Of a stretch of DNA of 64,000 nucleotides, positions 13,704 through 17,613 are shown in pieces. Under the pieces are notes generated by a model that saw nothing but the letters and a program-made list of their open reading frames with translations, searched no databases and was not told the DNA's origin. The position numbers and the translations under genes are program-made. The stretch spans positions 1,664,001-1,728,000 of the forward strand of contig CAWGHO010000003.1 of the NCBI GenBank assembly GCA_963822445.1, given 5' to 3'. Each line of letters begins with the position of its first letter. Position 1 is the stretch's first letter. The DNA is from an uncultured Acidobacteriota bacterium (GTDB lineage Bacteria; Acidobacteriota; Thermoanaerobaculia; Gp7-AA8).

Positions 13704-15296
13704 CTAAGCGTCCTGCAATGGCTCCGCGGTCGCCCGCAACGCCTTCTTGTCGAATTTCCCCACCGACGTTTTCGGCACGGCCTCGATGAAGCGGATCTCG
13801 TCCGGAAGCCACCACTTCACGAACTTCTGCGAAAGGTGCTCGAGGATCTCCTCGGAGGAAACCGATTCGCCGGCGCGAGGGACGACGTAGCCCACCGGCC
13901 GCTCCTGCCATTTCGGATGGGGGACGCCGATCACGGCGGCTTCGAGCACTTTCGGGTGGGCCATGATCGCGTTCTCGAGCTCGACCGACGACACCCATTC
14001 GCCGCCCGACTTGATCACGTCCTTGGCCCGGTCGACGATGGTGATGTAGCCGTCGGGCGTGATCGCCGCGACGTCACCGGTCCGGAACCAGCCATCGGCG
14101 GTCATGCGATCCGTGGCCGTGTCGTTGTGATAGCCGTTCGTCACCCAGGGGCCGCGCACCTCCAACTCGCCGAACGCCTCGCCATCCCACGGCAGCTCGC
14201 TGTTCGTCGCGAGATCGGTGATGCGGATCTCCAGGCAGGGGACGGGCGGACCGGCCGTCGCGCGTGCATCCATCGCGTCGCCTTCATGCCAGCTGCGCGG
14301 GCGGGCGATCGAGCCCATCGGCGACGTCTCGGTCATGCCCCAGGCCTGAATGAGATTCAGCCCGCGCGCTTCGTAGGCGGCGATCAGCGAGCGCGGAACC
14401 GCGGAGCCGCCGCAGATGATCTGCCGGATGTTGCCGAGCTTCCGATCGCCCATCTTCGCCAATGCGCCGACCCAGATCGTCGGCACGCCGCTCAGACAGG
14501 TGACCTTCTCCGATTCCGCCAGCGCCAGCACCGCTTCCGGATCACCCATCCAGCGGTCGGGAAAAACGAACGTCGCGCCGGCCATCCCGGCGGCGTACGG
14601 CTGGCCCCAGGCATTCGCGTGAAACATCGGCACGAGCGGCAGGATCACGTCGCTCTCGACCATGCCGATGGTGTCGGTCTGGAGAACGGTCAGCGTGTGC
14701 AGAAAGTTGGAGCGGTGGGTGTAGACCACGCCTTTGGGATGGCCGGTCGTGCCCGACGTGTAGCACATGGCCGCGGGCGCACGCTCATCGAGCTCCGGCC
14801 ACTGATACTGATCGGATTCGTTCGCGATCAGAGTCTCGTAATCGAGATACTTCCCGGCGACGGAAGGATCGTCGCTCATGACGATCACGTGCTTCACGGT
14901 TTCGCAACGGTGGATGAACTTCACCAGCAGCGGCAGCAGAGTGTCGTCCACGATGATCACGGAGTCCGCGGCATCGTTGGCGATGAACGCGAGCTGGTCC
15001 GGCGAGAGCCGCAGATTCAACGTGTGCAGCACGGCGCCCATCAAGGGCACGGAGTAATACAGCTCGAGGTGGCGGTAGTTGTTCCAGGCCAGTGTGGCCA
15101 CGCGATCGCCCTCGCGCACGCCGAGCTTCGCCAGCGCGTTGGCGACTTTCCGCACGCGCCTGGCCATGTCGGCGTAGGTGTAGCGATGAACGCCGCTGGC
15201 CCGCTTGGTGATGACTTCCTTCCGCGAGAACAGCTTCTCCATGCGCCAGAGCACGTGATGAAGCGTGAGCGGGTAGTCCTGCATCGATCCCTGCAT
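13704..15296 (-). CDS. Fatty-acid--CoA ligase (AlkK/DmdB-like acyl-CoA synthetase)
   Basis: YTSGTTGHPKGV, WGMTETSP, GWFRTGD, DRAKDVIKSGGEW, PKTSVGKFDK; SD GGAGG before ATG 15296. Confidence 0.93.
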   Translation of the reverse strand: MQGSMQDYPLTLHHVLWRMEKLFSRKEVITKRASGVHRYTYADMARRVRKVANALAKLGVREGDRVATLAWNNYRHLELYYSVPLMGAVLHTLNLRLSPDQLAFIANDAADSVIIVDDTLLPLLVKFIHRCETVKHVIVMSDDPSVAGKYLDYETLIANESDQYQWPELDERAPAAMCYTSGTTGHPKGVVYTHRSNFLHTLTVLQTDTIGMVESDVILPLVPMFHANAWGQPYAAGMAGATFVFPDRWMGDPEAVLALAESEKVTCLSGVPTIWVGALAKMGDRKLGNIRQIICGGSAVPRSLIAAYEARGLNLIQAWGMTETSPMGSIARPRSWHEGDAMDARATAGPPVPCLEIRITDLATNSELPWDGEAFGELEVRGPWVTNGYHNDTATDRMTADGWFRTGDVAAITPDGYITIVDRAKDVIKSGGEWVSSVELENAIMAHPKVLEAAVIGVPHPKWQERPVGYVVPRAGESVSSEEILEHLSQKFVKWWLPDEIRFIEAVPKTSVGKFDKKALRATAEPLQDA

Positions 15297-15330: not shown

Positions 15331-15359
15331 TTGACAGGATAACAAAGGGCGCGTATCGT
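15331..15359 (+). promoter_or_regulatory. Sigma-70-type promoter of the met leader / metB-hom operon
   Basis: TTGACA (15331-36), 17-bp spacer, TATCGT (15354-59). Confidence 0.75.
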
Positions 15360-15371
15360 CCGCGGCCAACC

Positions 15372-15434
15372 ATGAGTCATTCATCGCATGCCGCGGTTCG
15401 AATGATGATGCGTCGCCCGGACGCGATCGCGTAG
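15372..15434 (+). CDS. Putative Met-rich attenuator leader peptide MSHSSHAAVRMMMRRPDAIA
   Basis: 20-codon ORF with ATGATGATG at 15402-10, between a promoter and a methionine-biosynthesis operon; followed by hairpins and anti-SD sequences. Confidence 0.65.
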   Translation: MSHSSHAAVRMMMRRPDAIA

Positions 15435-15514
15435 CTACGCGTTTGTAGATCCGGGTCCTCCGCGCTTTTCCCTCCACACAACCTGTAACGCATCGAACTT
15501 TCTGGAGGAAAGTC

Positions 15515-16693
15515 ATGGCCTACCGTTTCGATACCCGTGCAATCCACGCCGGTCAGCACAACGACGTCGCCACCGGCTCCGTCACCACACCGATCCATCA
15601 GACCTCGACCTTCGGGCAGACCGAGCCCGGGCTGAACAAAGGCTTCTGCTACGCGCGCACCGGCAATCCCACGCGCACCGCCCTCGAAGAAAACCTGGCC
15701 GCGCTCGAGAACGCGCGGCACGGGCTCGCATTCGCCAGCGGCATGGCCGCCATTCAGGCGGTGCTGTCCACGCTGAGCAAAGGCGACCACGTCGTCTCGA
15801 CGCAGGACCTGTATGGCGGCGCGTGGCGCATCTTCACCAAAGTCTTCAGCCGCTTCGGCATCGACTTCACCTTCGTCGACACATCCAATCCCGCGGCCAT
15901 CGAAAACGCCATTCGGCCGGAGACGAAACTGCTCTGGCTGGAGACGCCATCCAATCCACTCCTGCGCATCACCGACATCGCCCGCTGCGCCGCGATCGCG
16001 CGCGGCAACGGCATCACCACCGTCGTCGACAACACCTTCGCCACACCTGTGTTGCAACAACCGCTGTCCCTCGGCGCCGACATCGTCGTGCACTCCACCA
16101 CGAAGTACATCAACGGCCATTCCGATGTGATCGGCGGGGGAGTGCTCACCAACGATGACGGCCTGTTCGAAGAGCTGAAGTTCCTGCAGAACGCGATCGG
16201 CGCCGTGCCCGCCCCGCAGGACTGTTTCCTCATCCTCCGCGGCATCAAGACCCTCGGCCTGCGCATGGAGCGGCATTGCTCCAGCGCCGAGCTCCTCACG
16301 CGCTGGCTGCTGGCGAACGATCGCGTGCGGCGCGTCTACTATCCCGGCCTCGTCGATCAACCCGATCACGCCGTGGCCCGCCGGCAGATGAACCGGTTCG
16401 GTGCGATCGTTTCCTTCGAGCTCGATGCCGGACTCGAGGAGACCAGGGCCTTCACGCGCCGTCTGCACCTCTGGACGCTCGCGGAAAGCCTGGGCGGCGT
16501 GAAGAGCCTTTTCTGTCATCCGGCGACGATGACTCACGCGTCGGTCGAGGCCGACGTTCGGCGGAGTGTGGGGATCGGGGACGGTCTGATCCGGCTGTCG
16601 GTGGGGCTCGAAGACGTTCGGGACCTCATCGACGATCTCGAACAGGCCTTTGCCAGGACGGCGCGGTCGAATGCCGAGGAGCGTGTCGCGTGA
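15515..16693 (+). CDS. metB: Cystathionine gamma-synthase/lyase (Cys/Met metabolism PLP enzyme)
   Basis: TRAIHAGQ, YARTGNPT, FASGMAA, ETPSNP, VDNTF, HSTTKYINGHSDV, AESLGGV, IRLSVGLE; next to hom. Confidence 0.85.
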   Translation: MAYRFDTRAIHAGQHNDVATGSVTTPIHQTSTFGQTEPGLNKGFCYARTGNPTRTALEENLAALENARHGLAFASGMAAIQAVLSTLSKGDHVVSTQDLYGGAWRIFTKVFSRFGIDFTFVDTSNPAAIENAIRPETKLLWLETPSNPLLRITDIARCAAIARGNGITTVVDNTFATPVLQQPLSLGADIVVHSTTKYINGHSDVIGGGVLTNDDGLFEELKFLQNAIGAVPAPQDCFLILRGIKTLGLRMERHCSSAELLTRWLLANDRVRRVYYPGLVDQPDHAVARRQMNRFGAIVSFELDAGLEETRAFTRRLHLWTLAESLGGVKSLFCHPATMTHASVEADVRRSVGIGDGLIRLSVGLEDVRDLIDDLEQAFARTARSNAEERVA

Positions 16694-17613
16694 GGCGGGT
16701 TCGGATCGGGTTACTGGGTTGCGGAACGGTCGGCGGCGGGTTGGTGAGGCTGGTCGCGCACGAGCGCGACCGCGTCCGCGCGCGATTCGGCGTCGACCTC
16801 GAGATCGGCCGCATTCTGATCCGCGACCCGAAAAAGCCGCGCGCGAACGTCGATCGGAAACTGTTGACGACGAACGCGCTGGACGTCATCGACAGCGACT
16901 GCGATCTGGTCGTCGAGGCCGTGGGCGGCGTTCACGCAGCCGGAACGTTCGTACGGCGCGCCATCCAGCGCGGCCGCCACGTCGTTACCGCCAACAAAGC
17001 CTTGCTGGCGGCCACGGGCGGTGAATTGTTCGCCGCCGCCGCCCGGCAAGGCGTGACCATCGGATTCGAGGCCAGCGTCTGCGGCGGTGTGCCGGTCGTC
17101 GGCGCGCTGCGTCGCGGGCTGGCCGGCGACACCATCGAGAGCATTCGCGGAATCCTGAACGGGACCTCGAATTACGTCCTGTGTCGCATGGACGAGGGTC
17201 TGACGCTCGAACAGGCCGTGGCGCTCGCGCAGCAGAAAGGGTTTGCCGAGGCCGATGCCTCGCTGGACATCGGCGGCCACGATGCGATGCAGAAGTTGAA
17301 GATCCTGGCCGGGCTGGCGTTCAACGAGCCGGTGCGGAGGACGACGGTCGTGGGAATCGAGAGCGCGTCGCGTGCGGGCACTGGCTATGTAGTCCGCCAG
17401 GTCGCCGAGGCGCGGCGCGTTGCCGGCGGCGTGGAGCTGGTGGTCGAGAATCGACGGCTGCCGGCCTCCGATCCGCTGGCCGGCGTGCGGGACGAGCAGA
17501 ATGCAGTCGCCATACGAGGGCGGGCGGTAGGCGAGATCTGGCTGAGCGGACGAGGAGCTGGATCGCTGCCGACAGCCGCAGCCCTGCTTGGCGATATCCT
17601 CAATTTAACATAA
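16690..17613 (+). CDS. hom: Homoserine dehydrogenase (short form, no ACT domain)
   Basis: GLLGCGTVG, VVTANK, FEASVCGGVP, GILNGTSNY, GFAEAD, G.GAG.LPTA. Confidence 0.92.
   Translation: MRRVRIGLLGCGTVGGGLVRLVAHERDRVRARFGVDLEIGRILIRDPKKPRANVDRKLLTTNALDVIDSDCDLVVEAVGGVHAAGTFVRRAIQRGRHVVTANKALLAATGGELFAAAARQGVTIGFEASVCGGVPVVGALRRGLAGDTIESIRGILNGTSNYVLCRMDEGLTLEQAVALAQQKGFAEADASLDIGGHDAMQKLKILAGLAFNEPVRRTTVVGIESASRAGTGYVVRQVAEARRVAGGVELVVENRRLPASDPLAGVRDEQNAVAIRGRAVGEIWLSGRGAGSLPTAAALLGDILNLT

Follow-up and report, generated by a model that had tools for sequence, protein, structure and literature searches.

The likely metB-hom operon in the DNA analyzed here (a 64,000-nt stretch, hereafter the window) is preceded by a short open reading frame (ORF) with clustered methionine codons, and comparison of orthologous loci confirms, at the level of sequence, that this Met-codon leader is a genuine and family-wide element. 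Across the aligned leaders, comparison shows a fixed register of the last Met codon, the pairing of a hairpin that follows it, and a conserved CCUCC tract complementary to the Shine-Dalgarno sequence (SD) of metB. We think it probable, with some reserve, that a near-leaderless leader peptide senses Met-tRNA and thereby controls metB translation; the stall, the opening of the ribosome-binding site (RBS), and the sign of the response are parts of this reading that we infer.

The leader, its operon, and its genome

A first-pass annotation had described a poly-Met leader peptide as a candidate methionine-sensing attenuator, and its coordinates for the promoter, ORF, three ATG codons, hairpin arms, anti-SD tracts, SD, and metB start all match the sequence (Table 1). 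The promoter is the sole sigma-70-like site in 1.2 kb (0.2 expected from shuffled sequences), and the window leader's ATG lies 12 nt downstream of the −10 box. Across 65 leaders this distance is 8–12 nt, which suggests a 5′ untranslated region of 2–6 nt, and on the same measure that of the window leader is predicted to be ~2–6 nt. Taken singly, the window leader folds only modestly better than shuffled sequences (z −1.6), and the case therefore rests on comparison. A Met run occurs in only 1 of the 34 promoter-plus-short-ORF sites of its own genome, namely the window leader itself, and neither a motif search nor a profile search found a second copy of the leader there.

Table 1. Features of the leader and the operon that it precedes, in window coordinates.
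Feature	Position	Strand	Basis
Sigma-70-type promoter (predicted), TTGACA-17-TATCGT	15331-15359	+	Sequence match
Leader ORF, 20 codons, SD-less, MSHSSHAAVRMMMRRPDAIA	15372-15434	+	Frame conservation
Met codons, ATG x3 (likely sensor)	15402-15410	+	Codon conservation
Last Met codon, fixed register	15408-15410	+	Constant distance to hairpin
Hairpin 5′ arm CCCGGA (family consensus CCCGGG)	15416-15421	+	Complementary arm, compensatory variants
Hairpin inner stem and loop, including stop codon (15432-15434)	15422-15449	+	Predicted folds
Hairpin 3′ arm TCCGGG	15450-15455	+	Pairs with 5′ arm
Conserved anti-SD tract (U)CCUCC, TCCTCC in the window	15456-15461	+	Near-invariant alignment columns
C-rich, G-poor spacer, possible Rho loading site	15462-15502	+	Base composition
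Non-conserved second anti-SD tract CTTTTCCCTCCA	15465-15476	+	Inside spacer
SD of metB-like gene, GGAGGA	15504-15509	+	Sequence; SD region 15503-15512
Cystathionine gamma-synthase-like gene (metB, likely)	15515-16693	+	Best NCBIfam match PRK07811
Homoserine dehydrogenase gene (hom), overlaps metB stop	16690-17613	+	PRK06349

The view that neither a SAM riboswitch nor a T-box covers the leader was borne out by Rfam: the entire window gave no matches in gathering mode (SAM riboswitch and T-box models included), and in E-value mode the 1201 nt around the leader gave only two chance matches, outside it or on the wrong strand. No intrinsic terminator-like site (stem plus U tract) was found on the + strand between 14800 and 16000, and none is evident in the aligned family leaders.

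The metB-like protein scores just below the cut-off of its best model (508.2 against 513 bits), and hom scores well above its own (327.6 against 205 bits). At 307 a.a., hom covers only positions 2–318 of the 430-position PRK06349 model. The part missing at the C-terminus is likely the ACT domain, and such a truncated hom would fit a feedback-insensitive, Met-dedicated copy. Upstream, a divergent acyl-CoA ligase gene (13704-15296, − strand) matches PRK06187 above the cut-off, with 3-methylthiopropionyl-CoA ligase as the next match, below cut-off; given that the upstream neighbor varies among relatives, we place this gene outside the element. A metB paralogue (~52–55% identity) follows a cysteine-synthase-like gene (L017-L026; G000:C2:1143729-1144856). 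It is likely a reverse trans-sulfuration lyase, and the leader is absent before it in the relatives inspected.

Neither a SAM-I riboswitch nor a member of the MetJ family was found in the window's own genome (94.7% complete), which does encode rho, above its cut-off. Two SAM-II/SAM_alpha-like elements are present (G000:C2:959019-959093, +, and C2:1057926-1057999, −), scoring 28.6 and 32.5 bits, below the Rfam cut-off of 36. Each is followed by a terminator-like hairpin, and the genes downstream are metH and a yitJ-like gene. The SAM-II class is known mainly from Proteobacteria and Bacteroidota. We also noted a near-leaderless 17-codon ORF at G000:C1:1109534 (minus strand), rich in Tyr/Phe codons and starting 9 nt past a −10 box, which is followed by a hairpin and U tract. 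Upstream of this ORF are trpBA-like genes, and downstream is a DAHP-synthase-like gene, assigned by inspecting its translation by eye. This is likely, judging from the layout, an aromatic amino-acid attenuator. It shares the near-leaderless arrangement of the Met leader, and it has a classical terminator.

Distribution and conservation of the element

Orthologous loci were collected via a protein-based search to avoid selecting on the motif. A metB orthologue at E < 1e-145 was present in 79 of 124 family genomes (80 hits), and the set compared comprises the window, 14 loci, and 60 of 64 further loci from the protein search. The four omitted loci (one at a contig start, one unpublished, one second copy, and one other) lie in genomes or copies in which the leader profile matches in every case. 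Two unpublished sources, L014 (genome G002) and G076, contribute one count each, and no claim hangs on either alone. Conservation in orthologues had been set beforehand as a check on the leader, and the leader ORF with its hairpin precedes 74 of the 75 metB-like genes, the remaining one having a SAM-I/IV-like riboswitch instead.

An exact 20-nt pattern retrieved 27 stretches from the genome collection, all Thermoanaerobaculia or Acidobacteriota by title; 13 duplicate loci already sampled, and all 14 new ones precede a metB orthologue. Of 117 family genomes, 80 gave a match to the leader sequence profile, as against none of three other genomes in the order. Likewise, among 301 class genomes no other family yielded a metB orthologue at E < 1e-140, and a search of 151 phylum genomes turned up the element only within the family, whose members gave the only strong profile matches. 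Upon inspection, two weak profile matches in that set, and a weak second match in G104, lacked the element. In metagenomes searched with a degenerate pattern, 91 of at least 120 matches were the element and 29 were chance (among the matches listed), with metB visible downstream in 88 of these 91. One intact leader (L160, G114:C10) precedes a metB-like ORF that ends early, at ~186 codons, which may reflect a frameshift or an assembly error.

A promoter (TTG..-17/18-TA...T) is recognizable in 65 of the 74 leaders. In every one of these 65, the ATG nearest downstream of the −10 box shares its frame with the Met codons, although the spacing between them takes 13 different values from 24 to 78 nt. 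That 12 length changes should all keep frame has a chance of ~2 in a million, a figure to be read with the reservation that kin are not independent. All 80 metagenome leaders with a promoter are also in frame (among the matches listed). Five of the nine leaders without the promoter pattern have an in-frame ATG behind a variant promoter; three of the other four are second units of a cascade described below, and one lies near a contig start. The stop falls at codon +8 after the last Met in 71 of 74 leaders (TAG 45, TAA 21, TGA 5), and each of the four third bases occurs among the Ala codons at +5 and +7 (74 leaders). Selection for translation of the leader frame is, in our reading of the alignments, shown by this comparison. 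The SD-less translated ORF proposed at first pass is upheld by the frame conserved in orthologues, and the covarying stem and the anti-SD are upheld with it.

Counting codons from the last Met (position 0), ATG occupies −5 in 48, −2 in 71, −1 in 35, and 0 in all 74 leaders; position 0 belonged to the search anchor, which was matched by 74 of the 75 loci. At −1, GTG (30 leaders) is nearly as frequent as ATG, with other codons in nine. The conserved unit of the aligned leaders is thus M-x-M, not MMM: of the poly-Met description, what survives is a cluster of Met codons, conserved as M-x-M with extra Met codons nearby, and the MMM run (middle Met in 35/74) is lineage-specific. In 65 peptides, Met makes up 52% of residues at −5 to 0, 9.8% at −8 to −6, 0.6% in the variable N-terminal part, and 0% after the last Met, compared with 2.0% in eight window genes. 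These peptides have 2–5 internal Met each, one leader has four in succession, and no Cys occurs at −5 to 0.

Other positions are fixed as well. The codon at −3 is CGA in 70 of 74 leaders, a codon that eight window genes use for only 13 of their 280 Arg residues, and the third position of −5 is G in all 74. The residues R-P-G-A after the last Met are also conserved: Pro, which belonged to the search anchor, is kept, another residue stands in for Gly in 4 of 74 leaders, and Arg is lost in some natural variants. Given that ATG has no synonymous codon and that CGA and R-P-G-A are conserved too, Met-codon sensing is not cleanly separable from a constraint on RNA or peptide.

Measured from its first base, the last Met codon lies 8 nt ahead of the hairpin's 5′ arm, and this distance is constant while the stop moves (+6, +7, +8, +11). 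A complementary 3′ arm is present in 72 of 74 leaders, and compensatory changes of four kinds affect three of the base pairs (CCCCGG/CCGGGG, CCCTGG/CCAGGG, CCCGAG/CTCGGG, and CCCGGA/TCCGGG), the last being the window leader's own. The inner stem and loop differ in length and sequence among genera. The covarying arms bear out the CCCGGA/TCCGGG pairing seen at first pass, and the overlapping palindromes noted with it are local inner-stem variants. RNAalifold on the full-leader alignment recovered the anti-SD:SD pairing and missed the main hairpin, the 3′ arm being aligned out of register, so arms were counted per sequence.

The anti-SD directly follows the 3′ arm in 88 of 91 metagenome elements (among the matches listed). 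Its duplex with the SD beats shuffled SDs in 19 of 19 genera but other genera's SDs in only 11 of 19, that is, without covariation; the row for genus g37, whose anti-SD was mis-located by the pattern, is uninformative in this comparison. The 30 nt after the 3′ arm contain C 939, T 551, A 352, and G 228 (C 45%, G 11%), and a median of 53 nt separates the 3′ arm from the SD. Of the two anti-SD tracts originally marked, the first (CCUCC) is the conserved one, and the second is a local variant of the pyrimidine-rich spacer.

Three natural variants of the locus stand out. The sole orthologue without the Met leader (L111, G128) carries the SAM-I/IV-like riboswitch (RF01725) at 2271-2405 on the minus strand, at 40.9 bits (cut-off 41.1, E 0.0013). 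Its last stem covers the SD region, from which we take the operon to be likely repressed by Met/SAM at the translation level. In three genomes of one genus (L151, L152, and L153; G082, G083, and G084), two leaders form a tandem cascade. The first unit has a promoter, an ORF with 3–4 Met in a row, a hairpin, and an anti-SD, then an SD and ATG; the second ORF (56, 99, and 103 a.a.) stays in frame through a variable, low-complexity, stop-free repeat into a second hairpin and anti-SD before metB, and this second unit has only two Met codons. Finally, L154 (G081:C102) is a decayed leader remnant between parB-like and lptF-like genes, with no promoter, start codon, or frame, where metB-hom is missing.

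Proposed control of metB translation and competing readings

In the mechanism that we favor, the leader without a ribosome, or after the ribosome has left, would form the hairpin; CCUCC would pair with the SD and metB would be translated poorly, and Rho may then terminate the untranslated metB-hom transcript. A shortage of charged elongator Met-tRNA would leave a ribosome waiting with its A site on the last Met codon. Stalled in this way, it would cover ~12 nt from the first base of that codon, a stretch that takes in the CCC of the 5′ arm, and the hairpin would open. Refolding of the leader downstream would then reduce the anti-SD:SD pairing and allow metB-hom to be expressed.

Folding points weakly in this direction. 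In 47 leaders from 17 genera, the predicted cost of opening the RBS is 10.0–10.4 kcal/mol under five of the six masks that spare the hairpin and 9.7 under the sixth, and across the 47 leaders it is 9.1 kcal/mol at the last-Met stall footprint, 9.2–9.9 further on, and 10.2 at the stop. The anti-SD:SD probability is 0.58–0.65 with the hairpin intact, 0.44 at the last-Met stall, and 0.57 at the stop (47 leaders, 17 genera). For 71 leaders, the value at the stop minus that at the last-Met stall is +1.28 kcal/mol with a 15-nt footprint (42 up, 10 down) and −0.67 kcal/mol with an 11-nt footprint (13 up, 39 down). The 71 leave out three long-spacer leaders; g37 and L064 were partly excluded from the folding samples, and leaders per genus were held to at most 4–8 in the mask scan and 6 in the alternative-partner folds. 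An earlier test on 29 leaders gave no clear switch. In every folded state the SD is partly paired, and the folds do not converge on any one alternative partner of the anti-SD. Modeling therefore lends weak support to a stall-induced RBS opening of ~1 kcal/mol whose sign is set by the assumed footprint. The first-pass annotation had offered two outcomes of a stall at the Met codons: the freeing of the metB RBS is the one that folding weakly favors, and the prevention of termination, with no intrinsic terminator on the + strand, could only be Rho-dependent.

Two candidate pairings were rejected: a helix, picked out by eye in some genera, joining the loop after the stop to a segment further downstream, which beat other genera in 9 of 19 cases and shuffles in 9 of 19, and pairing of the Met codons with that downstream segment (9 and 10 of 19 genera in the two controls). 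A model with the intact hairpin as the on state, on which folding alone was undecided, was set aside as well, for in the cascade it would invert the response. There, high Met shutting the first unit would leave no ribosome at the second, and repression by Met then needs, as we infer, the ribosome-free state to be off. Broader than Met-tRNA control of metB, and held only tentatively, is the proposal of a terminator-free, family-wide Met attenuator that is interchangeable with a SAM riboswitch and has, in one genus, become a cascade in which the first leader gates translation of the second.

Several other readings account for part of these data. The same Met-codon sensor might act chiefly through Rho, with the position of the ribosome exposing the C-rich spacer and the anti-SD secondary. 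The composition of the 30 nt after the hairpin, the presence of rho, the absence of an intrinsic terminator from the + strand, and the weakness of the predicted RBS switch would all suit this output, which we nevertheless regard as unlikely: conservation is higher at the anti-SD, which is complementary to the SD in 19 of 19 genera, than elsewhere in the spacer, the spacer is short, the riboswitch that substitutes for the leader covers the SD, and the first unit of the cascade runs straight into an SD and ATG. A little less likely again is that Met serves as an arrest motif, not as hungry codons, with the nascent peptide R-M-x-M-R-R-P-G-A arresting the ribosome on a ligand such as SAM or free Met. 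Such arrest is familiar from plant CGS1 in response to SAM and from TnaC in response to Trp, and the element replacing the leader in G128 is predicted to sense SAM. Within the conserved R-P-G-A-x-A-stop, the Ala and Pro codons vary synonymously, and R-x-P-G resembles the RAPP/RAGP class of arrest-peptide motifs. Against arrest, R to P, R to C/S/L/G, and G to D/S are all tolerated, the variants MVMPCPG and MLMPGPG have no Arg there, the window peptide has D for G via a compensatory base change, and a Met number of 2–5 suits the counting of codons, not contact with the tunnel.

Should the ORF be translated merely to melt the hairpin, metB would be coupled to general translation and Met would not be sensed. 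Any ribosome over +12 to +30 does reduce the predicted RBS pairing, and the rare CGA at −3 could pause ribosomes without starvation. However, simple coupling leaves unexplained the enrichment of Met just before the hairpin, the swap with a SAM riboswitch, and the restriction to the metB-hom operon, and we judge it improbable. Least probable of all, to the point of being hard to credit, is that the leader is a riboswitch aptamer of an undescribed kind (for SAM or similar), its fixed bases reading as an ORF by chance. Positions fixed at the level of the base, such as the G at −5 and CGA, are what an aptamer would show; a frame kept over so many spacings, swaps of stop codon, and synonymous changes are not, and Rfam gave no match.

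If Met-tRNA sensing is correct, the ribosome can report elongator Met-tRNA even though Met is also needed for initiation, and one organism would read SAM (through the SAM-II-like elements at the metH/yitJ-like genes) and Met-tRNA at different steps of the pathway. The ribosome-to-ribosome relay in the cascade would, if real, sharpen the response to methionine starvation. The reach of the element is limited: among the genomes searched, the family occurs in a single uncultured lineage. Short (under 190 nt) and well aligned, it can serve as a test case for which nature supplies the controls, namely the compensatory mutants, the exchange for a riboswitch, the cascade of two leaders, and the decayed remnant.

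Comparison with known systems

Methionine genes are usually controlled by repressors, SAM riboswitches, or T-boxes. The SAM-I/IV riboswitch of G128 takes the same position before the orthologous operon and appears to act on the SD; it differs from the Met leader, with which it has no match, in binding SAM directly and without translation. The classical leader-peptide transcription attenuators are trpL, hisL, leuL, thrL, pheL, and ilvL, and Met is not known among their classical specificities. Several general features of an attenuator are present in the Met leader: a short ORF translated by comparative evidence, enrichment for codons of the end product, and a conserved structure that overlaps the ORF. 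As in the classical systems, the cognate codons lie where a stalled ribosome would occlude one strand of the leader hairpin, whereas the Met leader has neither a U-tailed terminator nor a terminator/antiterminator pair, and its ORF is SD-less.

Full-text literature yielded no tested Met leader-peptide attenuator, with the proviso that supplementary lists of leader ORFs or RNA motifs and subscription journals could hold one; the accessible portions of PMC4833913, PMC2965389, and PMC9373788 contain no Met leader peptide. The Met-codon leader peptide family is, as a set of sequences, real and, in the literature covered, previously unlisted. The first-pass remark that no Met equivalent was known is correct for characterized systems, but a leaderless short ORF with Met codons, metL, has been proposed upstream of metNIQ in Streptomyces lividans TK24 (PMC8079986). 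According to the accessible text of that paper, metL resembles the Met leader in preceding a Met-related operon with no typical intrinsic terminator. It differs in being proposed from a single genome, neither tested functionally nor analyzed for conservation in that text, in serving a transporter operon, and in mixing Met with Cys and Thr (PMC8079986). It has no motif in common with the Met leader family.

A close parallel is Ms5788A, a mycobacterial attenuator in which a polycysteine leaderless sORF senses Cys and the Cys-codon tract pairs with the SD region (bioRxiv 10.1101/834739). As far as the accessible part of that report goes, the two share an SD-less ORF at the 5′ end, cognate codons near its end, and an amino-acid operon downstream, as well as control at translation initiation with the ribosome-free state off, which for the Met leader is our model's prediction. 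Unlike Ms5788A, the Met leader uses Met codons, and its anti-SD lies past the stop behind a separate covarying hairpin; the poly-Cys sORFs described there are leaderless, whereas the Met leader starts a few nt inside its predicted transcript. Judged by its sequence features, the Met leader would work like the poly-Cys attenuators but is not a member of their group, having another amino acid and a separate anti-SD, and a relation in sequence between the two is not to be expected.
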